Source: Styela clava
Taxonomy: Eukaryota
Assembly (NCBI RefSeq): GCF_964204865.1
Contig: NC_135254.1
Coordinates: 10,540,001 to 10,604,000, forward strand
DNA: 64,000 nucleotides
Direction of reading: 5' to 3'
Part shown: positions 6,845 through 54,940 of the stretch, piece after piece
How positions within the stretch are numbered: position 1 is the first letter of the stretch
How the letters are laid out: the number at the start of each line of letters is the position of its first letter
Position numbers and translations under genes: made by a program
The notes under the pieces: model-generated
What the model was told of the DNA's origin: nothing
Database searches by the model: none
Seen by the model: only the letters and a program-made list of their open reading frames with translations

Positions 6845-9800
6845 TTATTTAATATTGTCAATATTTGCATAGGGGTCATCGTTTACTTCAATGTCAGACC
6901 ATTCAGCATCTCCTGTGACATCGGAATTCTGATCTGTTTCAAGTTTATTGACCGTTGCATAAGTTACTTCATTGAAGTTCGAAGAATCATCTTTCTTGGG
7001 TTTCTGTACAACAGCAAGGGTCACTTTATTGTCGTCTCCATCTGAAAATGTTTCCTGTTTCACGGGGCCTTTCGTTTTAGTCTTCTGCACGGTAGCGTAA
7101 GTCGGACCAGGCACTAGCTTTTCATCAAAGGAATTTTCTGGTTGCGAATTTTTTTTAGAATCCTCAACATTGTGTTTTTGAACCGTTGCGTAAACCACAG
7201 GGGAGTTCCCGTCAAGATAACCAGAAACATTAATTTTTTCACTCTTTTTTTGCTTATCAACGACAGCGTATTGAATTTCTGATACATCTGCCGCATCCAA
7301 ATCTTTTGAGGATTTGTATAACTTTTTCGATTTTGTCTTGTTAACAGCAGTATATATAGCATTGTCGTTGCCTTCTGGGGTCACATCGTTTATCTGATTC
7401 TGATGGTTATCGGCAATGGCGTAGAGGGAATCTTGCCCGTTTGATGAGTCAACTTGATCTTCGGGTAAGTGAGAATTATTGTCTGCCTGTCCATCAAGGT
7501 TTGCAAACGTCTGATAACGAAGAGTTTCCGTATTTTGAGAATTGTCTCGACCTGATTCCACATCTCCGGGATCTGTAGCAGTAAAACATGTTAGTGATAA
7601 ATATTAATATGAAGCAGCTGTTTTGACACACTTGAAGCATTTTCGTTTGGAGGAGTTGGAAAATAGGTCGGAGCCATTCAGATTAACTGACTACAGATTT
7701 GAATACGGACTCATACACGCTATTACCTACTCGAGTTACCTATATTAATATAATCACCATAACTGAATGCATGATGAAGTTCATTAGAAACAACAATTCT
7801 GAATTTTTACGTGGAAAGATTCTATTTAGTATCGGTTGGTATCGTTGCAACAGGTTGTGATTTAAATGTAACATCTTATCTTGTTTTACGCTTCTCTGTG
7901 TAGTATTCCTATATGCTATATATTCTCAATATATTTCCCGCAAAATCACTTTTTTCTCATTAGGCATATAGTTCAAATAAGATAATCATATGGTGCACAT
8001 AGAAATGAGTATTCCTTTTTGTTTGTCATACATTTACTAGCATGTGGTAGACAGTAAAGTACAAGAATTCATCAACCCAGATAGAATACGTTGACGTAAT
8101 ACTTTAAATGAAGTTACATTAACTTACGATCTGACATTATATCCCTCGGATTAAGTTGATTTTCCATTTCTAACCCTTTATTGTAATTGCAACGATCTCC
8201 TGTGTTTATGATTCCGCGGCCTCTTCTGAAAGCAAAACTTTAGATTTTATGCATTCTCGGTGAAATGAGTAAACCCTTATTAAAAAGATATTTGGTATCC
8301 GTTCACTATTTATAAAAGATGTAATGTCATAATGTTGGATATATTACCTTTTTTTGAGTTGCTTTGAAAGTATAAAAACAATGATAAGTGCTAAAAGAAG
8401 AAACCCTCCGATAGTTCCCACGACTGGTTCAATGATTGATGTTTGTGCAGCGGGTGTAGATGGACGAAGAATTCCAATCGTCGAAATTTCAGGAATTTCT
8501 GTGTGAGATAATATAGGAATTAATATCAGTACAATATAAATGATCAGAAATTTGATTTAATACATTATGTTCATTTAAACAAGCTGACACATTTTCGCGA
8601 GCTGAAATTAAATTTAAAATATTTTGCAACGCTCACATTTGAAAATTAATCGTACGAAAGGTATTTGACTGCTTCATCCTGATGTTATACATTTGAACAT
8701 TCTAATTGGTCTTTTGATCGATGAACAAATGTTGGCCACGTTCTCACGTGCATTTTAATAAATGACTCAATTGTAGAAAAGGTGAAACTGATTGTATAAA
8801 CTTATGATTTGTTATGGTAAACTATTGCTAATACTATTATAATTATCCCACGTTTCGTTTGTATTTGAGTTTGCTTTCATTGCAGACTTTGCCATGATTA
8901 ACTCTGATCAAGTATAAATTGTTTCTTATTTGCAGCTACTAGTTTAGGATCGAACCCGTAAAATTATAAATTTCTGTTTTTTGTGCGATTTTCATCGTCA
9001 GCAAGTCACTTGAGTTAAAAGAAAGATATTAATGTAGTATTCGTAATTTTTGTTTCATTGTAGCCGTGCACCGGTACACCGGTAGTCATGGTAGTCATTA
9101 CGTCGGTGGGTTCTTCGTTTGTGGACGAGGTGGTTAACTCACCAGCAGTTGTGGTTAATGGAGATGTTGTTTCCGCAACAGTAGTCGTATAACAAGTTGG
9201 GTCTTTTGTACAATTTGCAGTCTGTTAAAAATATTCAATCAAACTAAAAGAAAATTGAAATTGATCAGTATTATTACAATTTCCAAACATGGCTTTTAAA
9301 TGGCAAAAGTTTCTTTAACATACCCGCAGAGCATTAACGAAGGCATGGTCAATAAAAGCATAATTGCTTTTATTGGAAGCGCATGGCTTGCAGGAAGCGT
9401 ATGGCGTATGGAGCGTATGAAATTCAAATTAATGGGGTCCAGACTGAGGAAGTTGCAAGTCACATTTAAAATAAGAATGAGGTGATGAAATCATTTTAAT
9501 ACGTTAGTCAATCTGTTTCGATTAATAACTAATTACGACTAAACTGACTTAAATAAATTTACCTGAGTGGCAATGCTAGATGTAAATAAATATTGTCGTT
9601 GATGAAGTTGAGTAAAAAAATTGGTACTCAATTAACTCACAGATGGCGGATACCGGAACGTAGTATGTGTACTAGATTAGGATAGGGCCATAATTTTAAG
9701 TACAAATAAGACGCGAGTCACTTGGCTAATCCTCGAACTCGTAATAAATCTAAAATAAGCAAAAATTGAAATATAATTATGGCCTAACCCTAACCTGGTA

Positions 9801-11671
9801 CACACACTACGTTCGGGTGTCCGCCATCTCGTTCACATACTTCGGGAGCGCTCAAAAATCTATCAAACGATAGCTATATAATGTAAGTGTGTCTCAACAG
9901 TGTGTACGAGAAAAATGTTTTATTTCCATTTGTAATTTTTAGTTTTGCTACGACACAGCAATAAACATGCTACAAGTAAATAAAATCCTAGGCTCATGTA
10001 ATACTTAGCAATACAGCTAGGTAATGAGCTAGCAGTTTGAACAGAAACACAATCATAATGAGTTACAAATGGAAAACAAGTTTACTTCCGATTGTGTTGA
10101 CGTATCATTGCATGAGTATGGACCAATTCTACCGCTGTCAACACAAATTCTGTCACGCAGCTTTATTCCCGGGCATTCACAACTTCCCCGAGACTCCCAT
10201 GATCCCCAATTCCAGCCTGCAGAAACATATTGATTAAAATAAGAGTTGTATTCTTCATAAGTAAGTATTCTGAAGCAATTTTATATCAGTAAATTTATAT
10301 CAAGATGAACTGTTAATACAGTATAAACGATAGAAACGATAGCATAGCTATGTAAGGTATAAACAGTGATAAGATGACATTACTAAAAACATTAACAGGA
10401 TCTTTTCTGAAATAAAAGCTAATCAAATGTAGTTAACTTTGTACGGAAAAAAGAGACAGGTTTTTCACAGTTTTATTTTATCAAAAACTGAAAGTTTTGC
10501 TGACAGTAAATTATTAATATTGTGCAACTGCTTTTTTTAATAAGCATAATTTATCTAATTGAACATTGGACCAAGATAACCCAATTCTCAATTTTCTTTA
10601 AGAGAATTTGCTCAGAGCAAAGTTAGTCGCACTCACTCGGAAAAAAAAAAACAATCGTCTCTTGATCAAAATACGGCCGGTCGCTGAAATGCCAAGTGCT
10701 ACTGAAATCATACAGTATTTTGTTGGTGCAATAGGCAACAGCGAATAACTATTGATGCGATTCTTGAAACACTTCAAATCAATGCTATAAACTATGGAAC
10801 AGTAAACATTGGCATGAGTAACATGAACTAAACTTAAGTCGATGGCAATATTATATATGAATAGAGTTATTTTCATATAAAAAAAAGAGACATAATTTAC
10901 AAATTGAGTATATATAAATTTATTACAAATAATGCTTGTTACCGATCAATCGTTGGCAGACAAATCCTGTTAGGGCGTTCGCAGCGCATTCGACGTCATA
11001 CCACGGTAGATTTGCATCATACGTGTACCACCATCCCATAGCAACACAATGTTCAAGTAGATGATCAGAAGGTTCTCCTAAGTACCAGTTAGTGTAGTTT
11101 AGTTCTGAATTGTCTTTCCATATGAAGGTATTTTTTGTGACAAATTCCTTTAATCCAATATAAAATCCATAGGGTTCTCCTGTAGACAATAAAATGCCTT
11201 AGAGTAATAAAAAGTTTTGTCGCGTGTAATATCTATTGTATGTAAACATGATTGGTTGGGACTGTTGGACATTATTGTGAACGTGTACAAATATATGAAC
11301 ACTGACGATTTAAGAATAAAAACAAAAATTCGGGGGAAAACGTAAAACGTCCTATATACCTGAGGTATTTGAGACTTGAGTCTGAATAAACGTTTGAATC
11401 TCACTAGTTTTTATCATTGCCATCTCACCATCATTGTTTTTACAGAATGTTTCAGCATCAGCATAACGTTTTTTATCATCTTTTCCAGATACGTAGTATT
11501 GGTAACTTCCAAATCCATTCCACTCACCTCTATCTGGTCGCAAAAATTAAGGGTTCAGGAATAAGCACATAATTTGAAAGACGTGAGGATATATAGTATA
11601 TGCCAACCTGCGCTAACGACGGCAACCATCCAAGCAAATATTCCAACGAATATCGAAAGATTCTCCTTCAT
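6845..11671 (-). CDS. Receptor 1: SP-CTLD-TSP1-mucin-TM-ITIM-rich tail (~553 aa), putative inhibitory lectin receptor
   Basis: Phase-compatible GT-AG exons: 11671-11608 (MKENLSIFVGIFAWMVAVVSA), 11533-11360 and 11179-10943 (CTLD: FC..IGL..W..EPS..C..WYD..C..C), 10216-10086 (TSP1 WNWGSWESRGSCECPG..RDRIC), 9221-9143 (T-rich; this donor could lie further 3'), 8498-8348 (TM VVGTIGGFLLLALIIVFIL then KQLKK), 8225-8128, 7572-6845 (IQYAVV, VVYATV, VTYATV). Total 1662 nt, open. Confidence 0.88.
9641..9829. mobile_element. MITE with ~55-bp terminal inverted repeats in intron 4 of receptor 1
   Basis: agatggcggataccggaacgtagtatgtgtactagattaggatagggccataatt versus aattatggcctaaccctaacctggtacacacactacgttcgggtgtccgccatct. 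Absent from the homologous intron of receptor 2. Confidence 0.75.
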
Positions 11672-21166: not shown

Positions 21167-24100
21167 TCAAGCATCATATTCATTTTCAGGCATTGAATTG
21201 ATGTACGGATGTTCTTTTGTTGTACGATCATTCATTTCTTCGTATTGATGATCTCCGTCTTTTATTTCTTCATAATTATGTGGGATTTCATAATTACCTT
21301 CTTTTTCTTCTCTTAACTCATTATTTCGGGAGTTCAATTGGGATGTTTGAATTTTATCATATTTTTCATGAGAAACCGGGACGTCATTAACAACCTCATT
21401 CATCTCTGAAAGACGTTGTGGTTGAGTGTCGTTTTTTTTTTTAGAAATTCCCCTGTGAACAACAATAAACTTGAAATAATTCACAAGTAGGCTTTTGGAT
21501 AGAAACAATGGATTTTTTTTTTCTTGAATTGCTTCTGTTATAGAGGACTTAGCTTATATATTAGCTAAACGTCATCGTGATCGGACGAAAATGTTAGCCC
21601 AGTATTCAAGACATTGTTCCGGACATTGAGATTGTTACTGCTGTATAAAAGATTTTATTTTACTTATTCAATTGAGAGGAAATACTCCAAATCGTTCAAA
21701 ATATACACATTTTATTGTAGTATCGATCATTTCTCACCTCATTACTTTGCATCTACGAATCAGCAAACCAATTCCGAATAAAATAGCTGCGAGAATCAAT
21801 GTGACTATGGATGAGATAATTGCAACCAATAAATTGTTGTGGTCTGCAATATAATATGTAGTAAGAATCATAAACCTTAAAAATCTATCAGGAATTTACC
21901 ACGCAACAATACTGAAGAGAGGTTAAACATGAGTTGTAAACATCGAAAAGTCAGTGAGCATATTGTACCACAAAGTGGTAGTTTGAAAACCCTAATATTG
22001 TGCACTTAGAACTAATGTCTCTTATAAGCTGTAAGCTATATAATCTTACCACCAGAAGCCATTGTGGTAGTAGTGATTGCACTAGTGAGAAAGATAGTGT
22101 TTATCTCAGTAGTTTTTGTGTCATTTGCAATGGCAGACAATGTGGAAGTATGTGTCATGTAAGTAGGAGTTGTAAATTCTTGGTATAAATTTGTTGCTGT
22201 CATTTCAACAGTTGCCGCAGTGGACGTTGTATTACAGGCAGTATCTCTTGAACAATTGATCGTCTGGAAAAAGTAATTCTGATTTAGCAATTTTTTGATT
22301 TAAATGTACGATAACTTTTATATATTCTAATAGCTATTCAAATCCTAAGTTTAATGTTCTTTAAAATGTTGAGCAAATTTGAAAATCCCTATAGAAATAT
22401 TAATTAACGTGCTAATGAAAATTATTGAAAGTGAATAATGTATCAGAAACTTCTTAGGAGAATTTGTCAATAGCAAGGTCGGTCCTGCGCTCTGAATCAG
22501 AATTATTGGAGATTCACTATTAAAACTGCGGCTTATACACTAAAATATTGAGAACTATTAAATCAACGTAGAATGATAATCATTTTTCTTTCGATTACCT
22601 CAGAGGTCAGAAATTATCAAATTACACCAAAATGAGATATTTATTTTTATTTTATACCTCAAAATTGAATCCAATGCAAATATTGGTCCCCGCCATTCCC
22701 AAGGCAATGCATGTTCGATTTCGTACTTTCATCATTGAGCTGCAGTTACATGTACTCCACGATGACCAAGTTTCCCAGTAACTTCCTACATAGTGTTAAC
22801 ATAATCTTAACTGAGAATTAACGTGCGCTTCCTCTTTTTATCGTTTTCATTGATGATGCATATTAAAACTATATCAGCATAGTATAACATAGTGAACAGC
22901 AACGGCGTGAGCCAGTGAAAACATTCGTAACATTTTGCAGCCACAAACAACTACCACCGAAGACGGGTTTCACATGAGTTGTAAAAAACAGAAAGTCAGT
23001 GAGCATATTGTACCATAAAATAGTAGTTTGGAAAATCAAATTTTGTGCACTCAAGACTAATGTCTCTTATAATTTGTAAGCTATATAATCTTACCACCAG
23101 AAGTCGTTGTGTTAGTAGTGATTGCACTTGTGGGAAAAAGAGTGTTTCTCTCCGTAGTTTTTAAATCATTTGCATTGGCAGACAATGTGGAAGTTTGTGT
23201 CATGTCTGTAGGAGTTGTAAATACATGATATATATTTGTTGCTGTCATTTCAACAGTTGCCGCGGTGGACGTTGTACTACAGGCAGTGTCTCTTGAACAA
23301 TTGGTCGTCTGGAGAAAGTAATTGTGATTTAGCAAATTTTTTTTATTCAATATATGTACGATAATTTTTTATATATTCCAACAGGTATTTAAATGCGTTG
23401 TTTAATGTTTTTCAAACAGTTACAGAAATTTAAAAATTTTCACCAAAATATTATTTCACACACTAATGAAAAATATCGAAAATGAATAATTTAGATGAAT
23501 CAGAAACTTTTGAGGAGAACTTGTCAATAGTCAGGTCCTGCGCCCTAAATTGGAATTATTAGATATTCAATTTTAGGACTGCGGATTATACACTAAAATA
23601 GTAAAAATTATCAAAACAAGATAGAATGATAATCATTTTTCATTTTGAGCACTTTAAAAGATCAGAAATTATTATATTACTACAAAGAGTGGCATTTTTC
23701 TATATCTTACCTCAAAATTAGAACCAATGCAAACATTGGGCCCCGTCCTTTCCGAATTAATGCATGTTCGATTCCGTACTTTCAACATTGAGCTGCAGTT
23801 ACATATACTCCACGATGACCAGGTTTCCCAGTATCTTCCTACATAGTGTGAACATAATCTTAACTCAGAATTAACGCGCGCTTACTCTTTTCATCGATTT
23901 TGTTGATGATGCATATTCCAACTATATCATATTCTGATTTTTCTGCTCTTTGAATTTGTTGATTTTCAAATAATTATAGATTCAGAGCTAAATTTATTTT
24001 ATCATAGTTGAAACTAAGTTAAGTTGGAGTTCTAATATATGTGTTCTATTTATATTCCTGTTCATGTTTTGCGTTATACTAAAATCCTATTTTTAACATT

Positions 24101-27100
24101 CATACTGTTCTAATCACACAGCCAAAGCATATTCGCGCTAGAGTTGATTGTATTGAAGCTATGTTGAATAAAAATGAAAACAGTTTGACCTGTCACCTCA
24201 TTACTTCTTCTTTTTATTTTTTCAACTTCAATATTAGAAAAAATATGTTAAAAATTCGTTTTTCCTCGCTGTCGCAAGTTATTTTACTCACCGATATGGC
24301 GTTGACACACCAATCCTTTTAACCCTGTTGCTCCTGTGATACAGTCTATCGTATGCCATAGAAGATTTGCGTCATAAGTTTTTTGTTCACCTATCGATAC
24401 ACAAGTATCTGTTACACTGATATGATTGTTTGGTTCTCCATCATCCCAACGAGTGAATGAAAGGTTTGTTCCGTCGTTCCATTGAAACATCGACTTTGAT
24501 TTGTCATAAACAAGTCCAATGTAGAATGTATATGGTTCTCCTGTAATAAAACATATCATATTGCTTTATACTGCTTATATACACGCATAGACAAGTGTTT
24601 TAGTGAGAGTCATGCGGTTGAAGCGTTAGCCTTAATTGAGTTGGCATTGCAAATTACGCATCTCAGTTTCAAATACCATCTCACGTCACTCATGGGTGTA
24701 ATAAATTTGCCAGACAGTGTTAAAACTAACACAGCTTCTTATATATTGTTAAATATCAGTGGTTTTTGTACATGGACCTTTTCGCGTAAATAAGCGTTAT
24801 ATCTCAAAAGGTACGGAATTATTGCATTCCGTTCGTAATGAGTATACATTGACTTTAAAATTCAGAATAATGCACGTACCTGATCCATCAGAAATGAGTG
24901 TTGTTATAAATCCTTGAGTCATTTCATTCTTTATTAATGCTAATTCGCCCTCTCTCTCTTTGAAAAATGTTTTTGAAACTTCATAAGATCTTGAAATACC
25001 ACCCGGTGAAACGTAATATTCATAACTTCCATTAGGAAACCATTTTCCTCGACCTGTTTCACAAATGAGAAATCAAATGATTGAATAATATCAGTATTTC
25101 GAGAAATGCGCAGTGAAAAAGCTCGGTTGAGCGAGATAGCATCAGTTATTGCAGGCACTTGCTTTAAATTAAGTACTAAAGTGAATAATAAAGAAAAATG
25201 TTGATATATTGACGGATTTAATAGTTTCGATTATAAGTCGTTATAGCACCTTTCGATTAGAGTCAAGTCAAGTTTAATTTTTCCAAACAGTAAATTAACA
25301 ACAATCGAACACAAATTACGAGAAACTAATAATTACACAGATTTACTGGGGAAATAGATTTACTGGTGGTCGTGGGGGACCAAAGCTGGTTATCGAGCAG
25401 CGACAGCAAAGGTTCAAATATGTTATTTAAATTTGAGCTTGGAATCTACTGTCTTTGACGCTGTCTTTCAACATTATCAGTAAACGACAACGCTAACCTA
25501 GCTTACCGGTTATATACTCTTTTAATATTGCTTTTCAACCAATAAAAAAATATATTCGTGCCAGAGTTACAATAAAAAAAAATTATACAGTTTCACTAGA
25601 GACAGATCATTGATAGAAATTGGTTCATGACTTATGTGAAAGAGAATAACAGAGCCCATTGTTCATATCGCTATCTCATTTTCGCAAAAATTGGTCAGTT
25701 TGCTGGGAAATGAAAACATAACAACCTAATTCTAGAATGAGTTTTCATTCTCACCTAGTGGAGTCAAAGACATAGTTGCATTGCAGGAAACGGATGGCGT
25801 GCATATCTAAAAACAACGTTCATTTTGTTCAATCGTACATGTACGTGTTTTAATCAAATTAACTCTAACTCTTTATTACAAGATCAAAAAAAGAGAAATG
25901 TAACAATGAAATCCAAATTAATTGGGCGCAGACTGAAAGATTGGCTAGTCACATTTAAAATTAGAATGGAATTATGGAATTATTTTGATACGTTAGTCAA
26001 TCTCTTTCAATTAACAACGAAATACAACTAAACTGACTAAAGTTTCCTGAGTGGCAATGTCATGTGTAACTATTATTGTCGTATTTGTGAGGTATAGTTC
26101 TGGAACAACACACTAATCGACATGCTGGAACTTTATAAAATCCTGAACTTTAATGTAATGCTTATCAATACAGCTAGGTAATGAGCAAGCATTTAAAACG
26201 AAAACACAATTATAATGAGTTGTATTTGTAAAACAAGTTTACTTTTGACTCTGCTGTCGTATCATTGCATGAGTATGGACCAATTCTTCCACTGTCAACA
26301 CAAGTTCGGTTTCGTTGCCTCATTCCCGGGCATTCACAGCTACCCCAAGACTCCCATGATCCCCAATTCCAGCCTGCAGAAACATACAGAGAAAATTTAT
26401 TTTGTACAACTGAGTATTCTGAGAATTTTATATCAGTAAATGTAAATCAAGATGAACTGTTAACACAGTATGAGCGGTAGAAACAATGGCAAGGTATATA
26501 AATAGTGATAAGATCAAAAGCAGTTAGTTAGTTTTGCTTGCAGTAAATTTATGATATTGTGAAACTGCTTTCTCTAAACATAATTTATCCAGTTAAATTG
26601 GAAACATTAGACCCAGATAACCCAATTCTCAATTTTCATTAAGAGATTTTGCTCGAGGCAAACTTAGTCGCACTCATTCGGAATAAAGTATACTAGTATT
26701 TGATAAAAATACGGGCGATCGCTGAAATGCCAAGTGTCACTAACTGCAATTATACAGTATTTTGGTGGGACAATAAACACCAGCGGATGCCTGCTGATGC
26801 GTTACTACAAGCAGTTCAAATCAATGCTATAATGAGCATAATCATGGGCAGTAAATCCTGACATGGTTACAATTTACCAAATTGGCCTTAAAATATATAA
26901 ATAGGTATTTGCAAAAAGATTATGACTCTTCTGTTTAACAAAGTTCAGACAACCATTTATTGCATAAAACATCAGGCTGTATTCACAAAAAATACATAAT
27001 CTACAAATTTAGTATACATTTATTACAAACAAATGTTGTTACCGATTAATCGTTGACAGACAAATCCAGTTGGATAATTCGCAGCGCATTCGACGTCATA

Positions 27101-28345
27101 CCACGGTAGATTTGCAAAATACGCGAGAAACCACCCCATAGCACCACAAGATCGGGAACTCTCACTAGAAGGTTCTCCTGTGTTCCAGTTAGTGTAGGTT
27201 AGTTCTGAATTGTCATTCCATATGAAGGTATTACTTGTGCCAACTTCCTTTAAGCCAATATAAAATCCATATGGTGTTCCTGTAAGTGTAGACAATAAAA
27301 TGCTGTAGAGCAGGATTTTCCAAACTGGGTCCTCGGGCCCGCGGTACGTGTTGACTGCACAGAGAGTCCGCAGCGATATGAAAAGATTGTGATTAATCTT
27401 TAACGATTGATCTTAATCAAAAAGTCATAGCATCTTTTTGGTTCAGCGTTGTGGACAAATATTGCAGTCAGTAAAAGCGATTTTAATTTCCTTGCTATTT
27501 TCGACGACCTACATTGTGAGGCAGCATTTTCAGCTTTTACCAATATGATGACAAAATACAGGTCGGGACTTGCCGTATAATCGAACCTACAAGTTTACTT
27601 GTCACAAATTGCTCGAGAATCGATAAATTGAGCAGTGAAAAGCATTATTACCGTTTATGTTGTTATGTTGACAAAAAAAAATTCTTTCCTCGTTGGTTAG
27701 GCACAAAAACTGATACGGGGTCTGTCAAACCTAAGATTCAAAAATAGGGGTCAGGCTCAAAAAGTTTGGGAAACCCTGCTTTAGAGTAATAAAAAGTTTT
27801 GTCGTGTGTAATATTTGTTGTATGTAAACATGACTGGTTGAAACTGTTGGAGATAAATGAAATTATATTCTTATATATGACGACTGACGAATTAAAAATT
27901 CTCAAACAATCGTATGGAGTATTCTAACGCAAATCCCAAAACGCACGAACAAAGATTCTAATGAACATAACGTTAAATACTCTTAAGCAAATTCATTCCG
28001 GGATCTGGGGTGAAGCGTAAAATGTACTGTTTACCTGAGGTAGCTGAGACTTGATTCTGAATAAACATTTGAATCTCGCTAGTTTTTATCATTGCCATCT
28101 CACCATCAGTGTTTTTACAGAATGTTTCACCATCAACATAGGATTTTTTATCATCTTTTTCAGATACGTAGTATTGGTAACTTCCAAATGCATTCCACTT
28201 ACCTCTACCTTGTCGTAAAATAAAGAGTTTATGAATAAGCACATCATTTGAAAGACATGGTGATATATTATATATACCAACCTGCGCTAACGACGGCAAT
28301 CATCCAAGCAAATATCCCAACGAATATCAAAAGTTGCTTTCTCAT
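21167..28345 (-). CDS. Receptor 2: SP-CTLD-TSP1-CTLD-(TSP1-mucin)x2-TM-short Tyr-motif tail (~718 aa), putative activating lectin receptor
   Basis: 13 phase-compatible exons: 28345-28282, 28208-28035, 27279-27043, 26373-26243, 25806-25755, 25053-24880, 24540-24292, 23838-23711, 23308-23095, 22785-22658, 22263-22050, 21843-21738 (TM LLVAIISSIVTLILAAILFGIGLLI), 21452-21167 (YDKI, YEIP, YEEI, YEEM, YINS). Total 2157 nt, open. Confidence 0.85.
21930..23930 (-). repeat. Intragenic ~1.05-kb tandem duplication of the TSP1 exon plus mucin exon
   Basis: The 128-nt TSP1 exon and 214-nt mucin exon, with flanking intron sequence, occur twice at an offset of about 1045-1053 nt. Confidence 0.9.
27311..27778. 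mobile_element. hAT/Charlie-like MITE in intron 2 of receptor 2
   Basis: TIRs caggattttccaaact / agtttgggaaaccctg and 8-bp TSD ctgtagag/ctttagag. The empty site (ccttagag) is seen in receptors 1, 3 and 4. Confidence 0.88.
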
Positions 28346-37820: not shown

Positions 37821-40800
37821 TTAATTGATGTACGGATGTTCTTTTGTTGTGCTATTATTCATTTCTTCGTATTGATGATCTCCGTCTTTAATTTTCTCAT
37901 AATTATGCGGGATTTCATAATTTTCTTCTTTCTCTTCTCTTAACTCATTATTTCCGGAGTTCAGTTGTGATGTTTGAATTTCATCGAAGTTTTCATGATA
38001 ACTCGGGACGTCATTAACAACCCTATTCATCTCTGAAAGACGTTGTGGTTGAGTTGCGATTTTTTGAGAATTCCTCCTGTAAACAAAAATTAAGTTAGAA
38101 TTAATTAATAAGTAGGATTTTAAATAAGAAACATTGGATTTGTTTGCGGAATTGCTTCTACCATAGAGGAGTTAGAAAAAACAATCGACGAAAATGTTAG
38201 AGCCCAGTATTGCAGACATTGTCCCAGACATTGAGATTGCGCTTACAGCTGTACAAAGAGACACACCTTACTGATTCAATTTAAGAGTGAATACTCCAAA
38301 TTTTCGGTAAATATACACATTTTGTTGTAGTATCGAACATTTCTCACCTCATTATTTTGCATCTACAAATCAGCGAACCAATTCCAAATAAAATGATTGC
38401 AAGAATCAATGTGGCTATGGATGAGACAATTGCAACCAATAAATTGTCGTGGCCTGCAATATATTTCAACATATAGTAAAAAGAATCATAAACGTTAAAA
38501 ACAATTTTCAGCATTGAAGACAGGTTAAACATGAGAATCAGAAAGTCAGTGAGCATTTTATGGAACCACAAAATAGTAGTTTTAAAAACTCTTAATTTTG
38601 TGCATTTAAGATTAATGTCTCTTATAATTTGTAAGCTATATAATCTTACCACAAGAAGTCATTGTGGTAGTATTGATTGCACCAGTGGGAAAGAAAATGT
38701 TCATCTCCGTAGATTTTGTGTTATTTGCATTGGCAGACAATGTGGAAGTATGTGTCATGTCATTGAGAGTTGTAAATTTATGATAAATATTTGTTGTTGT
38801 CATTTCAGCAGGCGCCGCGGTGGACGTTGTATTACAGGCAGTGTCTCTTGAACAATTGATCGTCTGAAGAAAGTAATTGTGTTTAGCAATTTTTCGATAC
38901 AATATATGCACGATAATATTTGTATATTCCAACATTTATTTAAATCCGAAGTTTAATGGTTTAATGTTCTTCAAAAAGTTAAACAAATTTAAAAATGCTC
39001 ACAAAAATATTAATTCACACGCTTATGAAAAATAACGAAAGTGAATAATTTAGATAAATCACAACTTTTTAGGAGAATTTGTCAATAGCCAGGTCGGGCG
39101 CCCTGAATTAGAACTACTAGATATTTACTGTTACGACTGCGGCTTATACGCTATAAAATAGTAAAAACTATTCAAACAACATAGAATGATGATCCTTTTT
39201 CTTGTGAGCCCTTTAAAAAATTAGAAATTATCAACTTACTACAAAAAATGGCATTTTTTTTGTTTCTTACCTCAAAATTAGAACCAATGCAAATATTGGG
39301 CCCCGTTCTTCCCGAGTCAATGCATGTTCGATTGCGTACTTTCATCATTGAGCTGCAGTTACATGTACTCCACGATGACCAAGTTTCCCAGTAACTTCCT
39401 ACATAGTGTAAAGATAATCTTAATTCAGAATTACCGCGCGCATACTCTTTTCATCGATGTTGTTGATGATGCATATTCAAACTATATCATATTCTTAGTT
39501 TTCTGCTCATTCAAATTGTTGTTTTTTTACAGTCAATCAATAGTTTACTTATCACCAAAATGAACAGACACTTGAATCATACAAAAACTAGGAAAAAAAC
39601 ATGAGACATCGATGAAATGAAACACGCCATATCGGTGAGTAAAATAATTTACGAATTGTTAACGTATTCTTCTAATACTTGAAATAAAGTAAATATGAAG
39701 TGATGACGTGACATGTCAAACTGCTATATTTATTCAAAATAGCTTCAATGTAATCAAGGATTTGTTCAAAGGGTATTGTTTTAAAACAAGTTTTTTTGCC
39801 TGTTTCGATTAGAATGACTGTATTTTTTTACGTAGTAAATAGGTTTAAACATAAATAGGAAAAATTGCCAATTGCTTCTTATTCGTATACAAATATACAA
39901 ATATCGATGACTTGCTTATAAAGGCCTTCTCAAGCTGTAGTGCAATACGTCCGCAAACATGGTCGGCGGAGAAAGACGTAAACGATAAGCCATTACGTGA
40001 ACCTTTGTGTCGACAAGGATTCCAACATTCTTGCACATTGTCACATCACTCATGAGGCCAGGGGCGAATATACAATTGGGCAAGGTAGGCTAAAGCCTTG
40101 AGGCCTCTAACCTCGTGGGCCTTAACAATCAATTTTGAACTCATATTAATTTAAAATCGTTTTTGATTTGTGAAGGCTTGTTCCAGGATTATGTCACTTT
40201 AAAACTTTATAGTTATCATATTTGTTATTCAGGTTAATTTTTCCAAATATTTACCGAATAAAAGATTGAAAAGTTAAAATATGGCCGAATAAATGAATTT
40301 GTAATAATACATAAACTTGAAATCCCTATTATGGCGTTATATCCCATCGATGACAGTGAAACTTGAAGCAAACACTATAATAATCATTTATGCACTAATA
40401 ATTATTCAAGAGTAGTTAGTTTTGAACGGAATATTTATGATAGAATTCAGCTGTTCGGTTTTGAGCAGTTTTTTTTATCAAAAACTGAAATTTCTGCTGT
40501 CAGTAAATTTATAATATTGTGCGATCGCTGAAATGCCAAGTGCTACTGACATCATACATTATTTTGTTGGTGCAATAAGCAACAGCGAATACCTGTTGAT
40601 GCGATACTTTAAATTATTTAAATTAATGTTTTAAAGTTTATATAAACTATCGAGCAGTAAACATTGGCATGATTAAAATGAACTAAATTAAAGTTAATGG
40701 CATTAAAATACATAAATAGTTATTTGTATAAAGAAAAAAGGACATAATCTACAAATTAAGTAGACTTATTACAATAAAAGTTTGTTACCCATTAATCGTT

Positions 40801-41517
40801 GACAGACAAATCCAGTCGGTGCATTCGCATCGCATTCGACGTCATACCACGGTAGATTTGCATAATACGCGTTAAACCACCCCATAGCAACACAAGGTTC
40901 AGGTTTATCAACATGAGGTTCTCCTAAGTTCCAGTTATCGTAGGTTAGTTCTGAATTGTCCTTCCATTTGAAGGTATTGCTTGTGCCAACCTCCTTTAAT
41001 CCTATATAAAATCCATAGGGTTGTCCTGTAGACAATAAAATGCCTTAGAGAAAAAAAAAGTTTTGTCGTGTGTAATATTTGTTGTATGTAAACATGATTG
41101 GTTGGGACTGTTGGACATTATTGTAAACATGTACAAATATATGAACACTGACGATTCAAGAATTAAAACAAAAATTCGGGGGAAAACGTAAAATGTCCTA
41201 TATACCTGAAGTAGCTGAGACTTGATTCTGAATAAACGTTTGAATCTCGCTCGTTTTTATCATTGCCATCTCACCATCATTGTTTTTACAGAATTTTTCA
41301 CCATCAACATATGATTTTATATCATCTTTTCCAGATACGTAGTATTGGTAACTTCCAAATGCATTCCACTCACCTCTATCTGGTCGCAAAAATAAAGGGT
41401 TCAGGAATAAGCACATAATTTGAAGGACGTGAGGATATATAGTATATGCCAACCTGCGCTAACGACGGCAACCATCCAAGCAAATATTCCAACGAATATC
41501 AAAAGATTCTCCTTCAT
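37821..41517 (-). CDS. Receptor 3: SP-CTLD-TSP1-mucin-TM-short Tyr-motif tail (~392 aa)
   Basis: Exons 41517-41454, 41379-41206, 41025-40789 (EPH..WYD), 39398-39271 (WETWSSWSTCNC..RNRTC), 38863-38650, 38453-38348 (TM), 38076-37821 (YEIP, YEKI, YEEM, YIN*). Total 1179 nt, open. Confidence 0.87.
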
Positions 41518-43958
41518 TTCCGCGCTAATATCTAACATTTCTAACTTTCTTAGCCCATAACATTCTAATTTGAATCCAAAAATTGAAATAAAACAAGGTT
41601 GATATATACCAGATAGGGAAAACTAACGAGTAACGACATAAACTTTCCATGACAATACTAAAACATCAAAAGCTATGATTCGATTAGATAACACTACTAC
41701 AGATCTCCAAAGCAAATAATACACAATACATAATACTTTATGCAATACTTAGGAATGAATGATTTGATTGCCAACAATAGCATTAATTATAATTATTCGA
41801 AAACCTTCGATAATATTTTTAAGTACACTGCAACTAAGAATCATATTTCAAGCCGCATTACTTTCATTATCAGAAGAGTAATGCAGATAAGACCCTAATT
41901 CGACTTGCCGGGATGAAATCATAAGCAATATGATCTGACAGTTCTTACCTTACAATAACTAAGTCTAATATGAGTAATGAAGTTAATAAAGGTAATATTT
42001 TTATAGAATACACAATGAAACTTCCTATTACGAGTGGGATGTTTCAATAACCTTTTAGTCACAACATTTTTGAAATTACAGCAAAGAGATGATTAATGAC
42101 GAATATGCTTCAGAAGAAATACCTATTACAAGACTGATTAGCATTGTTATGCGGTATTCTCTAGTTACTTATGTTTATGTCATGTATAAAGCAATCCTTA
42201 TTCATACAGAAACATAGCGGTATTTAAAAAAATAAATCACTCAGATATCAAAATTTAACAATTAGAACGGGAGAGGATTGACCTATTTAGTTGAGATTTG
42301 AACGCAACAATTGTTTCTTTTCTAAAAATAAATATATGTATCATATTTTAATATGTGAGTTGTTTCTAATATTGGACGAGTTTTTCAGTATGAAATCCTT
42401 GATTCTGGTTTCACCAATCAACTCAAATTATTTGCTTATGTTGAAAATGATATTTCGATCATATTCATATTTGTAGTATAATAAACAATAACTATAATAA
42501 AGTAAATAATATTTATTTCACTACTGACACATGAATAACAGACGGAAAGAATGAATGAATTGTATTGTTTGCTACATTGATTGGCTCATTGGTTGCGTTC
42601 CCGTTTTGGCTTCTACTGCAGAAGCCATACGATAACCATTACTATGGTCTTCTTACTAAGGAAATGCATGTCGAGAAAACAACAACGGAGAATATGACTA
42701 ATCTAAGCAGAACGAAGTTGGAAATTACATAAACAACAACTATTAGAATAATACATGAATATCATGACAACTTTATAAGCAAAGCCAAGTAAAGCGATGA
42801 ATATTGTGGGCTATACTAGAGTTTTAACCTAATAAAAGTATAATAATCTCTTGTGACTGAATGCTGTTGTATCGTAAATGACAGAAGGATTTTTGAACCA
42901 TTATTCAAAATACATTATTCGATATTTGTAGAAAAACTGTTCATTCATAAAATAATAAATCCATGAGTTCAAATCATTTGCGTTTTGTGGAACAAAAAAA
43001 AATAATCATAAAATTAAAAAATTTGTGTTGGAATAAATGAACGATTGTTGTTAAATGAGATGAATTCAGGTTTTAAGTTACACAAAAAAAAAATTAAATT
43101 ATATGTAACAACATGATTTCCCGAATATCATTCTTTCTCTTAAGGGGTGTAATTAGACACTTTTATTTTCCATTGCAGAAATTAGTGTAACATTACAATG
43201 ATGACTTGTGCAGCAAACACTATTTTCTGCGAGCAGATGTGTGAGCTACATATTTAGTGACGACTTGTGTTTATTTGGTATGTGTATGTGATTCGTCCAA
43301 TTTTTTTAGAATGTGAGCAAGTTTTGGGCAAAGTTGAACGAAATTTGATTCAAAATTTACGATTGTATATTGTAAACTGTATTTTAGAGATACACTAAAA
43401 TAACAGTTTAACGTTTTGGCGTTTGCGAAAATGATTCACTGGAATAATTAGTCATAAAAAACGAACCTTGATGATCCCCTCGCATTTAATTGATCATAGT
43501 ATAGTTAAATCTGTATTCAATTTGCATTTGTTCGTCTATCATTGCATCTTAGCCACCTGTGCTGTATATTTGGAAGGTATGAGCATTTCGCTCTGTGACT
43601 AAATATCCCCAATCGAAATTAGTATAGCGATACTAAGCAGTGATATGTAAATGGGGCATTGGCGTATGTATCAAGCGCACGTATTTAACTTATCTATTAC
43701 ATATGCCTGAAATTATACATATTTTAAATTTCAATAAAATATGAATAAATTAATATACTAGTGGCAGAAGTAACTGAATGTCAAGTATTTATCAATTCTT
43801 TGGAACAAGTTTATTTAAAATGTTTTGGTATTTTTATTATTCATTTTGTTCAACAGAGCGTTTAATGTTTATCAGAGCTAATCATTTTTACTGCTAGTTA
43901 CATCCGCAAAGCATTACAATCTATATTTGATTTTTGTCAGTTTATATGATTCAGAAGA
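41518..43958. promoter_or_regulatory. Divergent promoter spacer, unit 3
   Basis: Homologous spacer between head-to-head ATGs. Confidence 0.55.
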
Positions 43959-46900
43959 ATGAGAAGCGAATTAATATTTTTGTTGGTTCTTCCTCAATAT
44001 CCGAGGCATCTAAACGCAGCAGGTATTATTTCATTGTTATGACTGTTTTTAGAAAATTTACTGAAAACAAGGTTACTCATACAGGTATAAGGGAGATTGA
44101 TCTGATCAAAGATTTTGAGATTATAAGAGATTAAAGGATAGAATTGAGCGTTGGTAAATACCGATCGGCACTAAGCTTAAAAGCAATTTTAATATCAATA
44201 CAATAAATAAAAGATGTGTGAGGTATTGAATTTCATATACATGGAGTTTTTGGACGGAACTGAGGAATTATAGGTACACTAACAGTAAACCGATGAGAGC
44301 TCACAGTCAATCGTATTTAAAGGCTGAAAACTTTTTAGGGGGACAATATTCACATTTTTGAACATTTGGTAAGCGGTAACAACCGTTGCCTGACAATATG
44401 AAATGGTAAAATTTGTTTAGATAATATAGGATTACATTACGTTATGTTTCAATTATTAATTTATTTTGCCAGAATGTCGGGAAACGCCCATGGATCTTGT
44501 ATTTATGCTGGATGGATCGGGTTCTATCACAAATGTGAATTGGGAGCTTATGAAGTCATGGGTCAAGTTGGTAGCAGAAAATTATGACTTGGGCGGATTA
44601 ACACAGATTGGTGTCGTTCAGTTCTCACACTGGTTTTCAAATGAGAAGTAAGCTATAGAAAGAGATTTCATTTTATTTAATTAGATTTTAAGTCGCATTT
44701 ATAAATAATTTATTTAAATTATTTAAAAGCAGCTGCTCTATTAGTCAAGATCAAATTGCCTAGAAACAGCTTCCATGATATGTATTTGGCTTAACTTTGT
44801 GGCGAAGAATGATTCTTTCTTAAGCGTCAAATGAGATCATCATGATCATAATAGTTCAAAAATTATGTCAACAGTGTTTTAGCTATGTTTTATATTTTAG
44901 TGCTTAATTAAAAATTAACAAGGAATTAGTTTTGATCGTTTTCCACTTTGTTCCACTTCGCTGCGAGTGTTTTTACGAATTTTATCTGGGTACAGTAAGA
45001 CTAAGAAACATTCTTCTAAAATCATTTTCAGCGTTTGTTTGTATTTTCAAATTCATTGTTATTCAATAAAAAAAATTCGGTAAAATAATTTTCATTTTCT
45101 TTTCATAGCACACAGCCATATTTAAAAACTGAAATTCAGCTAGGAAAACTGAAGACCAAAGCCCAATTGAAGGTAAAATATTCATCAAGGGTTGAGCAGT
45201 CGAGACTGGTACCGTCACGGTAAGATCAGACCACAGTTCGTGCTCATAAGGTATCGAACATGGCGGAATAAAAAGTATTCCTCTCTAATTTAAATACAAT
45301 AGTAAACTTTCGAGATAATCATTTGGTTCTATAATTTTTAAAAAAAATTCCATTCGTAACAACAACAAAAAACAAAACCCAGAATTTAGCATATTTTAGA
45401 TTCACATGCACAATAAACGCAGTTGCAAAACAAAGCTAGTGAGATAGTGTGGGGTCACGTTCTATGCGAAAAAGAACTAAAGTAATATTTGTCGTATGAA
45501 TTGTCTTATTAAACGATTTGTTCACAAAATTGTGATACCTTCAGAATTCAAAATGCAATTAGCTTTAAATTATTAACTGAGTATTCATTAGGCCGCTGTT
45601 GACGAAATATTAATTCATGGATTCACAACTTACACTGCACATGCTATCAACAAAACAGTTAACGAAGATTTCATGAGATCTGATCGTTTCTATGATGCTT
45701 CAGTGAAGAAAGTCATTATTTTATTTACAGATGGAAGGTAATAACTTATGTGTACAATGTCTGAATACACGTAAAATGCACCTTTGCATCGTATCGTTAA
45801 CTGTTGTTAATGTTTTTGTTATTATTGTTAATGTTCACGGTTCATGTAATGGTAGTTAGCAGAGTTCTTTTGATATATCCGTATATTTAGCCCCTTTGTT
45901 TTTCAACTTGGGTTTCTGCGCGATATATATTATTTTTATACCATCAAGATATTAGTTGTTGAAAATCTATATAAATGTTATTTCAAAGCTGATTACTCAG
46001 AATTGCTACTTTATTATTTACCAAATTATTCTAATCTTAGACATCCAAAAATTAAGAAGTAGTATAAAACCGTTTTTGTTTTGCTCGATTTATTGAAGGT
46101 ATGTAGATTATATGTATGTAGATTGTAGATGGTTATAGATAATTTTTTAAATCTTTTGAAGATCTACCGACAGAAATGATTTGCTTTTGTCAGCAAAATA
46201 TGCTCGGTCAAATGGGATTACTATATTTGCAGTTGGTGCTAGAGGTTATGTAATGGAGGATTTACAGGTAATCTGAAAAGTTGTAACAAATTGAAATAAG
46301 AGAAATTTTATGTTTCAATATATTATAGCTTTTCTATCTTTTGTCTAATCATTATATTTCTGTGTATTAAAGAATGTTCATCAACAAGACTGAGAAAGTA
46401 TAACCAAATTAGTTATCAGGATAAAACTCTTTTTGACTGATATTGATAAGTAACAATGTAGGCTACTGTACTTGTTTAAATGTACTTTCTATTTGGGCAT
46501 CTGGAGTGAGACCAGCTTCCAGCTTCTCTGTTTCTTATATCTGGGATTGGCAAAAAATATTTCATTCAAATAATATTTTTCTATTAAATAATTAGGCATG
46601 TTGAACGGAGAAATGACGTATCGCGGGAGCTCGAGCTGATATGCGACTGGCGACGTTCCATTTAAGATCAAATATTAAGTGCCCAAGACCAAGCATGTGA
46701 AAATATTTAGACATAATACATTTATTACTGCTCTGCGTTGGGAATTTTAATCGCTGTAGCCCCAGTGGTGATGACATTTATGGCTGCGAGCCATCGCACA
46801 CTTGATTTGGATTTGTTCGCAATTACTGGATGGTGTGCGATATAGTAACTGAGAAAACACGCGAACCTATAAGCCAATAAAGTCAACAAATACGCATTAT

Positions 46901-51238: not shown

Positions 51239-54200
51239 TTAATTGATGTACGGATGTTCTTTTGTTGTGCTATTATTCATTTCTTCGTATTGATGATCTC
51301 CGTCTTTAATTTTCTCATAATTATGCGGGATTTCATAATTTTCTTCTTTCTCTTCTCTTAACTCATAATTTCCGGAGTTCAGTTGTGATGTTTGAATTTC
51401 ATCGAAGTTTTCATGATAACTCGGGACGTCATTAACAACCCTATTCATCTCTGAAAGACTTTGTGGTTGAGTTGCGATTTTTTGAGAATTCCTCCTGTTA
51501 ACAAAAATTAAGTTAGAATTAATTAATAAGTAGGATTTTAAATAAGAAACATTGAATTTGTTTTCGGAATTGCTTCTACCATAGAGGAGTTAGACAAAAC
51601 AATCGACGAAAATGTTAGAGCCCAGTATTGCAGACATTGTCCCAGACATTGAGATTGCGCTTACAGCTGTATAAAGAGACACACCTTACTGATTCAATTA
51701 AGAGTGAATACTCCAAATTTTCGGAAAATATACACATTTTGTTGTAGTATCGAACATTTCTCACCTCATTATTTTGCATCTACAAATCAGCGAACCAATT
51801 CCAAATAGAATGATTGCAAGAATCAATGTGGCTATGGATGAGACAATTGCAACCAATAAATTGTCGTGGCCTGCAATATATTTCAACATATAGTAAAAAG
51901 AATCATAAACGTTAAAAACAATTTTCAGCATTGAAGACAGGTTAAACATGAGAATCAGAAAGTCAGTGAGCATTTTATGGAACCACAAAATAGTAGTTTC
52001 AAAAACTCTTAACTTTGTGCATTTAAGATTAATGTCTCTTATAATTTGTAAGCTATATAATCTTACCACAAGAAGTCATTGTGGTAGTATTGATTGCACC
52101 AGTGGGAAAGAAAATGTTCATCTCCGTAGATTTTGTGTTATTTGCATTGGCAGACAATGTGGAAGTATGTGTCATGTCATTGAGAGTTGTAAATTTATGA
52201 TAAATATTTGTTGTTGTCATTTCAGCAGGCGCCGCGGTGGACGTTGTATTACAGGCAGTGTCTCTTGAACAATTGGTCGTCTGAAGAAAGTAATTGTGTT
52301 TAGCAATTTTTCGATACAATATATGCACGATAATATTTGTATATTCCAACATTTATTTAAATCCGAAGTTTAATGGTTTAATGTTCTTCAAAAAGTTAAA
52401 CAAATTTAAAAATGCTCACAAAAATATTAATTCACACGCTTATGAAAAATAACGAAAGTGAATAATTTAAATATATTCCAACTTTTTAGGAGAATTTGTC
52501 AATAGCCAGGTCGGGCACGCTGAATAAGAACTACTAGATATTTACGTTTACGACTGCGGCTTATACGCTATAAAATAGTAAAAACTATTCAAACAACATA
52601 GAATAATGATCCTTTTTCTTTTGAGCCCTTTAGAAAATTAGAAATTGTCAACTTACTACAAAAAATGGCATTTTTTTTGTTTCTTACCTCAAAATTAGAA
52701 CCAATGCAAATATTGGGCCCCAATCTTCCCGAGTCAATGCATGTTCGATAGCGTTCTTTCATCATTGAGCTGCAGTTGCATGTACTCCATGATGACCACG
52801 TTTCCCAATATCTTTCTGCACATTGTAAAGATAATCTTAATTCAGAATTACCGCGCGCATACTCTTTTCATCGATGTTGTTGATGATGCATATTCAAACT
52901 ATATCATATTTCTATTTTTCTGCTCATTCAAATTGTTGTTTTTTTACAGTCAATCAATAGTTTATTTATCACCAAAATGGACATACACTTGAATTAAACA
53001 AAAACTAGAAAAAAAAAGAGACATCGATGAAATGAAACACGCCATATCGGTGAGTAAAATAATTTACGAATTGTTAACGTATTCTTCTAATACTTGAGAT
53101 AAAGTAAATATGAAGTGATGACGTGACATGTCAAACTGCTATATTTATTCAAAATAGCTTCAATGTAATCAAGGATTTGTTCAAAGGGAATTGTTTTAAA
53201 ACAAGTTTTTTTGCCTGTTTCGATTAGAATGACTGTATTTTTTTACGTAGTAAATAGGTTTAAACATAAATAGGAAAAATTGCCAATTGCTTTTTATTCG
53301 TATACAAATATACAAATATCGATGACTTGCTTATACACGCCTGCTCAAGCTGTAGTGCAATACGTCCGCAAACATGGTCGGCGGAGAAAGACGTAAACGA
53401 TAAGCCATTACGTGAACCTCTGTGTCGACGAGAAGTCCAACATTCTTGCACATTGTCACATCACTCATGAGGCCAGGGGCGAATATACCATTGGGCAAGG
53501 TAGGCTAAAGCCTTGAGGCCTCTAACCTCGTGGGCCTTAACAATCAATTTTGAACTTATATTAATTTAAAATCGTTTTTGATTTGTGAAGGCTTGTTCCA
53601 GGATAATGTCACTTTAAAACTTTAAAACTAGTTATCATATTTGTTATTCAGGTTATTTTTTTCAAATATTTACCGAATAAAAGATTGAAAAGTTAAAATA
53701 TGCCCGAATAAATGAATTTGTAATAATACATAAACTTGAAATCCCTATTATGGCGTTATATCCCATCGATGACAGTGAAACTTGAAGCAAACACTATAAT
53801 ATTCATTTATGCACTAATAATTATTCAAGAGTAGTTAGTTTTGAACGGAATATTTATGATAGAATTCAGCTGCTCGGTTTTGAGCAGTTTTTTTTATCAA
53901 AAACTGAAATTTCTGCTGTCAGTAAATTTATAATATTGTGCGATCGCTGAAATGCCAAGTGCTACTGACATCATACATTATTTTGTTGGTGCAATAAGCA
54001 ACAGCGAATACCTGTTGATGCGATACTTTAAATTATTTAAATTAATGTTTTAAAGTTTATATAAACTATCGAGCAGTAAACATTGGCATGATTAAAATGA
54101 ACTAAATTAAAGTTAATGGCATTAAAATACATAAATAGTTATTTGTATAAAGAAAAAAGGACATAATCTACAAATTAAGTAGACTTATTACAATAAAAGT

Positions 54201-54940
54201 TTGTTACCCATTAATCGTTGACAGACAAATCCAGTCGGTGCATTCGCAGCGCATTTGACGTCATACCACGGTAGATTTGCATAATACGTGTGAAACCACC
54301 CCATAGCAACACAAGGTTCAGGTTTATCAACATGAGGTTCTCCCAAGTACCAGTTATCGTAGGTTAGTTCTGAATTGTCCTTCCATTTGAAGGTATTGCT
54401 CGTGCCAACCTCCTTTAATCCTATATAAAATCCATAGGGTTGTCCTGTAGACAATAAAATGCCTTAGAGAAATGAAAAGTTTTGTCGTGTGTAATATATA
54501 TTTGTTGTATGTAAACATGATTGGTTTGGACTGTTGGACATTATTGTAAACATGTACAAATATATGAACACTGACGATTTAAGAATAAAAACAAAAATTC
54601 GGGGGAAAACGTAAAATGTCCTATATACCTGAAGTAGCTGAGACTTGATTTTGAATAAACGTTTGAATCTCGCTCGTTTTTATCATTGCCATCTCACCAT
54701 CATTGTTTTTACAGAATTTTTCACCATCAACATATGATTTTATATCATCTTTTCCAGATACGTAGTATTGGTAACTTCCTAATGCATTCCACTCACCTCT
54801 ATCTGGTCGCAAAAATAAAGGGTTCAGGAATAAGCACATAATTTGAAAGACGTGAGGATATATAGTATATGCCAACCTGCGCTAACGACGGCAACTATCC
54901 AAGCAATTATTCCAACGAATATCAAAAGATTCTCCTTCAT
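51239..54940 (-). CDS. Receptor 4: SP-CTLD-TSP1-mucin-TM-short Tyr-motif tail (~392 aa), close paralog of receptor 3
   Basis: Exons 54940-54877, 54802-54629, 54444-54208, 52815-52688, 52280-52067, 51870-51765, 51494-51239, all open. Confidence 0.87.

Follow-up and report, generated by a model that had tools for sequence, protein, structure and literature searches.

The window analysed here, 64,000 nucleotides of the Styela clava genome (C5:10540001-10604000, contig C5 being NC_135254.1; positions without a contig name are those of the window), holds four related receptor genes, R1 to R4. An original prediction, made from the window alone, had described R3 and R4 as chimeras that join a 5′ end like that of R1 to a stalk, transmembrane (TM) segment and tail like those of R2. 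A search of the 377-Mb genome with exon 3 of R3 gave 24 matches (24 candidates scored), all of them on C5 at 10.51-10.84 Mb, so that the four genes are members of a 24-gene tandem cluster, numbered g01 to g24, in which R1 is g04, R2 g05, R3 g06 and R4 g07. Exon mapping over C5 10.46-10.874 Mb, 414 kb in which no run of N occurs, found that in every gene of the cluster a signal exon comes first, followed by a C-type lectin domain that is split over two exons (lectin A). The architecture of the receptors is C-type lectin–TSP1–mucin–TM, and many genes carry a TSP1-A exon, a linker exon, a second lectin domain (lectin B) and another TSP1 between head and stalk. Eight genes have mucin-A, TM and a long tail of the ITIM type (tail A; ITIM, inhibitory motif of immunoreceptors that is based on tyrosine), 15 have mucin-B, TM and a short tyrosine tail (tail B), and g18 is a head only. 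Within this cluster R3 and R4 are chimeric paralogues, with discordant trees and localisable breakpoints.

R3 is an open gene of seven exons on the minus strand (41517-37821), all introns of which are GT-AG, and its product equals the C-terminal 392 residues of database model P0168. Exon 3 alone gives Lectin_C at 37.8 bits against a cut-off of 22.6 in Pfam, which identifies a C-type lectin-like domain. All six introns appear spliced in contigs from four probable-RNA runs, for which no RNA is on record, and the 1390-nt skip from lectin A to TSP1-B is spliced in two runs, both from one study, where the shorter flank measures 27-28 bases; these contigs can neither be assigned among the six genes sharing this layout nor phase the breakpoints. 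At 41530-41540 upstream of R3, and at the matching place of R4, a short duplication near the start codon makes an in-frame upstream ATG that is absent from g01 and R1.

The seven peptides named by the original prediction are all where it had placed them, and its claim that the 5′ end of R3/R4 is closer to R1 than to R2 is borne out by identities, derived sites, trees and a deletion. The identity of R3 to R1 and R2, respectively, is 97 and 88% in the proximal 200 bp upstream, 98 and 89% in the signal exon, 97 and 82% in intron 1, 92 and 94% in exon 2, 94 and 84% in intron 2, and 85 and 85% in exon 3. Counting as derived those states that have a frequency no higher than 0.34 among the other genes, and only sites at which 10 genes or more could be compared, 38 of the 39 sites that set R1 against R2 as parents side with R1 and one with R2, with no breakpoint (4876/5000 permutations as extreme). 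The tree of promoter, signal exon and intron 1 unites R1, g01, R3 and R4 with support of 99/96; four intron-1 and three intron-2 states occur in these four genes and in 0/19 of the other genes scored, and the four have in common an identically ended deletion of ~102 bp in intron 2, from which the deletion of g14 differs. Approximately unbiased (AU) tests do not reject this clade for exon 2 (p-AU 0.36) or intron 2 (0.31), and they reject it for both exon 3 (0.0015) and intron 3 (0.005). The link between R1 and R3/R4 in the 5′ segment is shared descent.

A different set of relatives is defined by intron 3, the R3 junction of which is shared by g03, g20 and g21; g01, g03, R3, R4, g20 and g21 group at 100/99 in its tree. 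This junction clade is rejected on the 5′ segment (IQ-TREE p-AU 1e-66, Kishino-Hasegawa and Shimodaira-Hasegawa 0); an earlier AU run had given p 0.295 despite a log-likelihood gap of 226, and the IQ-TREE rerun is trusted. The promoter and signal exon of R3 group with the tail-A genes g11, g15 and g23 (86/85), not with g03, g20 and g21, so that R3/R4 must have gained a 5′ end of class A either way.

One concordant topology along the gene, the outcome named as fatal to the chimera, was not found, as 20/20 cross-segment tree comparisons were rejected; these compare each segment's own best tree, which favours rejection, and the weight is carried by the constrained tests and the site permutations. 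At derived sites distinguishing R1 from g03, 60/62 side with R1 down to 40912 and 16/17 then side with g03 (0/5000 permutations), placing the best split of crossover 1 near 40912 in exon 3; because the split sites fall in a hypervariable loop, the safe interval 41146-40776 is used. The partner g03, of class tail B, is the next gene downstream of R1 and was invisible to the original prediction because its start codon lies 385 bases outside the window. The 3′ half of R3 is identical to g03 at 98% in TSP1, 97% in mucin and 99% in TM, and its tail to g20/g21 at 98%. With an R3-like head (97-99%) and a g03-like tail (98.1%), g01 would be the expected product of an R1 × g03 crossover. Crossover 2 appears in the quartet of R3/R4, g01, g03 and g20, where 90/91 sites side with g01 above 39211 and 219/219 with g20 below 38922 (0/2000 permutations; two sites with the third pattern were not counted); tail identities are 98.1% for g01-g03, 98.5% for R3-g20 and 80.3% for R3-g01.

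Some smaller observations concern individual genes. The TSP1 exon of R4 (52688-52815) groups with g12 (100/98), not with R3, a small separate conversion; that of g01 (C5:10512126-10512253) has an in-frame stop, so that its predicted product is a secreted lectin, and g08 and g18 are also broken. The genes g20 and g21 are 99.8-100% identical over most of their length, being either a very recent duplicate or an unpurged haplotype.

Table 1. Parts of R3 and neighbouring genes in the window
Feature	Positions	Strand	Remarks
R3 exon 1, signal peptide, R1-like	41454..41517	-	98% to R1, 89% to R2; intron 1 joint in contigs
R3 R1-like tract, proximal promoter to end of intron 2	41026..41990	-	5′ edge approximate; includes private ~102-bp deletion
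R3 exon 2, lectin domain A, first half	41206..41379	-	Pfam Lectin_C E 0.008, below cut-off
R3 exon 3, lectin domain A, second half, hypervariable loops	40789..41025	-	Lectin_C E 3.5e-9
Inverted remnant in R3 intron 3	39624..40322	+	Last bases of second lectin exon, donor site, next intron
R3 exon 4, TSP1 type B	39271..39398	-	Pfam TSP_1 E 7e-4, 20.2 bits against cut-off 21.6
Crossover 2 interval, intron 4	38922..39211		g01-like to g20/g21-like; 90/91 then 219/219 sites
R3 exon 5, TSP1 end and Thr/Ser-rich stalk	38650..38863	-	Model and contigs
R3 exon 6, TM segment without charged residue	38348..38453	-	Sequence
R3 exon 7, tail B, five tyrosines	37821..38076	-	Early stop also in R4, g20, g21
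R4, same seven-exon chimera	51239..54940	-	94-99% identical to R3 by segment; database model P0009
R1, tail-A gene, three ITIM-consensus matches	6845..11671	-	~11150-12050 common with R3/R4
R2, tail-B gene, two lectin domains, three TSP1 exons	21167..28345	-	Class of the R3 tail, not its donor
VWA-domain gene, 5′ exons, head-to-head with R3	43959..46270	+	Pfam VWA E 1.3e-9 at 44472-44648

The part assigned to R2 fared less well. The TSP1, mucin, TM and tail exons of R3/R4 are of the class of R2 (tail B) and have no counterpart in R1, as had been claimed, and R2 is not their source: the 3′ half of R3 is 87-92% identical to R2, and R2, at 89% in the tail against 98% for g20/g21, is ruled out as tail donor and stands among the most distant tail-B genes. 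Exchange of head and tail holds as exchange between tail classes, the partner being g03-like and then g20/g21-like. The lectin head had further been taken for a mosaic of R1 and R2 on account of peptides that turn out to be family-wide states, KEVGT and NQVSATS each occurring in 18, KEVGTSNTF in nine and YVDGE in six of 23 genes (the frameshifted g08 left out). Exons 2 and 3 hold 26 sites at which R2 has the state of R3 and R4 and R1 a different one; at 24 of them that state is the one found in half or more of the 19 other genes, and R1 is the outlier; the mosaic was apparent because only four genes could be seen. A grouping of R2, R3, R4 and g01 is compatible neither with intron 2 (p-AU 4e-30) nor with exon 3 (0.014).

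The original prediction overlooked that R2 carries two blocks of TSP1 and mucin and, at 25053-24292, a second lectin domain. The gene is itself a mosaic, with a g17-like promoter, a g15/g23-like exon 2, a g12-like intron 2 and a g09-like remainder, and its intron 2 holds an insert of ~470 bp (27313-27786), the ends of which are inverted and which shows a target duplication of nearly 8 bp; to this insert those of g12 and six tail-A genes are related. Over the 3′ part g09 is 93-100% identical to R2; it has three tandem blocks of lectin B and two TSP1-mucin pairs (C5:10619666-10635076), a four-lectin receptor.

Intron 3 of R3 records an older event: over ~700 bases it reproduces, in inverted orientation, the end of the second lectin exon together with the intron that follows (553/711 to g16 inverted; 72% to R2 24144-24302 inverted). 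From this remnant it follows that the lineage of six genes (g01, g03, R3, R4, g20 and g21) descends from a gene with two lectin domains and has lost TSP1-A and lectin B, through a deletion-plus-inversion that preceded the crossovers.

The direction of the first exchange is addressed by gene order. Head-to-head with 15/24 receptors (C5:10.517-10.831 Mb), and ~2.4 kb off, stands a gene that has a VWA domain and a predicted signal exon; it was copied together with its receptor in these 15 units, and could possibly be a co-regulated partner of it. Each of the seven tail-A genes on the minus strand has VWA exons upstream in head-to-head position (the first VWA exon only in g17) and a non-A gene directly downstream (g03, g10, g12, g14, g16, g18 and g22), and eight of the 15 tail-B genes, g01, R2, R3, R4, g08, g09, g20 and g21, stand alone head-to-head with VWA. 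Six internal genes have a distinct promoter clade of their own (98/98), and the promoters of the solo tail-B genes are interleaved with those of tail-A genes, monophyly of which is rejected (p-AU 5e-6). This gene order favours the direction originally predicted, namely an A head onto a B body. Upstream of g03, positions 1-1524 hold a diverged copy (70-87%) of the promoter and first VWA exon, and a lone distant lectin exon on the plus strand at 2688-2870 recurs upstream of g14, g16 and g18.

Based on these findings, we propose, with a probability of about two in three, that R3 and R4 are recombinant members of the cluster that originated by two crossovers from R1-like, g03-like and g20/g21-like genes. 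In crossover 1, a g03-like tail-B gene would have received promoter, signal exon and introns 1-2 from an R1-like gene; in crossover 2 the product would then have acquired its stalk, TM and tail from a g20/g21-like gene. The putative repeat unit would consist of a tail-B gene, a tail-A gene and a VWA gene, and if the A gene and the B gene next to it crossed over unequally within their similar heads, the A body would be lost; the outcome would be an A-head/B-body gene beside VWA, that is, a B receptor under an A promoter with the VWA gene retained head-to-head. The R1-like gene is the likely donor in this exchange.

Several points weigh against this proposal. The clade of 15 VWA-adjacent promoters has support of only 81/83; exon 2, with 14 sites at which R1 and R3 differ, holds no derived site for either parent and is uninformative on parentage; the sites defining crossover 1 may be homoplastic, given their place in a hypervariable loop; and the uneven identity of g01 and g03 (88% in exon 3, 92% in intron 3, 98% in the tail) indicates that more events are layered here. 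R1, moreover, lacks the intron-2 insert of six other tail-A genes; AU tests reject its membership of their clade both for intron 2 (p-AU 0.00015) and for exon 3 (0.0026), and it nests in intron 2 with the tail-B genes g03, g14, g01, R3 and R4 (99/97). Some of the tract may have travelled in the opposite direction, and because R1 is unlike the other tail-A genes and itself a four-part mosaic, the traffic of exchange probably ran both ways. The same placements of R1, among tail-B genes in intron 2 and outside the six-gene clade in intron 2 and exon 3, speak for an unlikely alternative in which R1 was the recipient, R3, R4 and g01 having kept a native tail-B head and given the segment from promoter to intron 2 to R1 by gene conversion. 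It accords with the patchwork of R1, which is 97-99% identical to R2 at 12200-12799, R3-like at 11150-12049, below 91% to every gene at 9350-11149, and of tail-A kind below 9350, and it is opposed by the grouping of the R3 promoter and signal exon with g11, g15 and g23 (86/85) rather than with g03, g20 and g21. Even with R1 as recipient, R3/R4 would still be recombinant at 39211-38922.

The two-crossover origin has also to be set against two other accounts. That the mosaic is an assembly artefact, through haplotype switching or collapsed repeats, seems improbable: the near identity of g20 and g21 means that some copies may be unpurged haplotypes, and no contig spans the whole gene, but R3 and R4 differ by 1-6% and yet have both breakpoints in common, the first of which g01 shares, the 414 kb are free of N runs, and run X1 has contigs over 39513-39772 and over 40244-40773, each at 1-3 differences. 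Hardly credible is the version originally predicted, in which a single crossover put an R1 head, its lectin domain patched with R2 sequence, onto an R2 tail and gave a paired activating partner of R1. Within the window alone the pattern looks so, and the tails of R2 and R3 are of one class, but the 89% identity of the R2 tail, the rejected grouping with R2 in intron 2 and exon 3, the commonness of the R2-like peptides in the family, and a lectin identity of R1 and R3 below the mean of A-B pairs are all contrary to it.

What the exchange may have changed depends on the tails and on the lectin loops. The ITIM consensus [ILVS]xYxx[LVI] matches 6/8 tail-A reading frames, three times in R1, and on reading the printed sequences it has zero matches in the tails of R2, R3 and R4, which separates two tail classes, one with the ITIM consensus. 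Tail B carries YxxI-x6-YxxM, YxxM and YxN, consensus motifs linked to Syk, PI3K and Grb2, and follows a TM without a charged residue; Pfam found nothing meaningful in either tail. The early stop common to R3/R4, g20 and g21 deletes the last tyrosine of tail B. Judged from these motifs only, tail A would recruit phosphatases and be inhibitory, and tail B SH2 kinases or adaptors and be activating; the cluster genes would encode type I surface receptors, the variable lectin loops of which would read foreign or self ligands.

Variation in lectin A is concentrated after the EP motif and in the following strands (positions 87-101 and 109-126 of 136), at or 3′ of breakpoint 1, and to judge by the position of the motif the variable residues would lie on predicted binding loops; positive selection over whole exons was not shown, the mean ratio of nonsynonymous to synonymous change (pN/pS) being 0.36 in exon 2 and 0.65 in exon 3. 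Mean lectin identities over the 23 genes are 84% for A-A, 84% for B-B and 82% for A-B pairs. The suggestion that R1 and R3 are paired receptors finds no near-identical ligand-binding domain behind it, as they are 79% identical there, below the A-B mean, and no A-B pair exceeds 90%, the value of the best. Because the tract stops before the variable lectin loops and lectin identity is 79%, the exchange gave no pair of R1 and R3 with a common lectin domain, and by this measure R3/R4 are not classical paired receptors of R1. What the swap would alter is the expression of a tail-B receptor in place and time, not its ligand.

The best solved-structure match, for the lectin domain only, is PDB 5xts (E 2.7e-21), of the mannose-receptor family. 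Lectins that bind sugar in a calcium-dependent manner carry EPN/QPD and WND motifs, EPN being the canonical mannose motif; lectin A of the cluster has EP(H/S/T) or QPS and mostly WYD, and R3/R4, unlike mannose-receptor-family lectins, have EPH in place of EPN and a signalling tail. Exon 3 hit 15 proteins, each of them a Styela clava model, and 13 bear the name uncharacterised; the full architecture was met only in Styela clava models in the homology searches, in which 8 distant hits were looked up among 150 listed, and a Ciona hit covers lectin domain and stalk only. Two distant plus-strand lectin receptor genes (C5:10481444-10486224 and C5:10848820-10849713; 38-49% identity) border the cluster; the database models matching them have other long tyrosine-rich tails, and their relatives occur on other contigs.

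KLR proteins are type II, and their activating members combine a charged TM residue with an adaptor, unlike the Styela receptors, which are type I with an uncharged TM. In vertebrate paired receptors (Ly49/KLRA, NKG2/KLRC, NKR-P1 and PIR), opposing partners have their ligand-binding exons homogenised (PMC3210942). The Styela cluster resembles them in its tandem arrangement, two tail classes and patchy conversion with crossover, and the KLR families in having lectin-like domains; it differs in that A-B pairs have at most 90% lectin identity and the tract ends before the variable loops. Another comparison is with the Fester family (FF) and Fester co-receptors (FcoR) of Botryllus schlosseri, type I receptors that lie in clusters and bear ITIMs or tyrosine motifs of other kinds, whose genes are encoded and copied as pairs and whose ectodomains and tails are mixed by intergenic recombination (PMC12582321). 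The Styela genes share with them a tunicate host, clustering, type I topology, tyrosine tails, ectodomain/tail mixing and gene pairing, and are set apart by description: FF/FcoR belong to the immunoglobulin superfamily, and the Styela receptors combine C-type lectin, TSP1 and mucin with a VWA partner. Pfam indeed gives Lectin_C and TSP_1, not an immunoglobulin-like ectodomain, in the scanned exons and database models. No description of the Styela cluster was met in the literature, with subscription papers and supplements outside the scope and a mention in a genome paper possible. The recombination process is already known and is expected in tandem families; the receptor family, the VWA pairing and the promoter-only swap appear to be undescribed.

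More speculatively, and with considerable doubt, the locus could be a counterpart in a solitary tunicate of the natural killer (NK) complex, with ~24 inhibitory and activating lectin-TSP1 receptors, in which each inhibitory receptor would share its promoter, head-to-head, with a secreted VWA ligand or co-receptor and repeated crossovers would hand such a promoter to activating receptors. If so, the polarity of signalling would be rewired without a change of specificity. The cluster itself adds a third kind of ectodomain to the independently evolved, fast-recombining clusters with ITIM or tyrosine tails, in a close invertebrate relative of vertebrates. As the breakpoints are unusually clean and the parents still stand in the cluster, the effect of a tail-class swap is directly approachable here, a swap that seems to move regulation, not ligand binding, the reverse of the pattern of vertebrate paired receptors.

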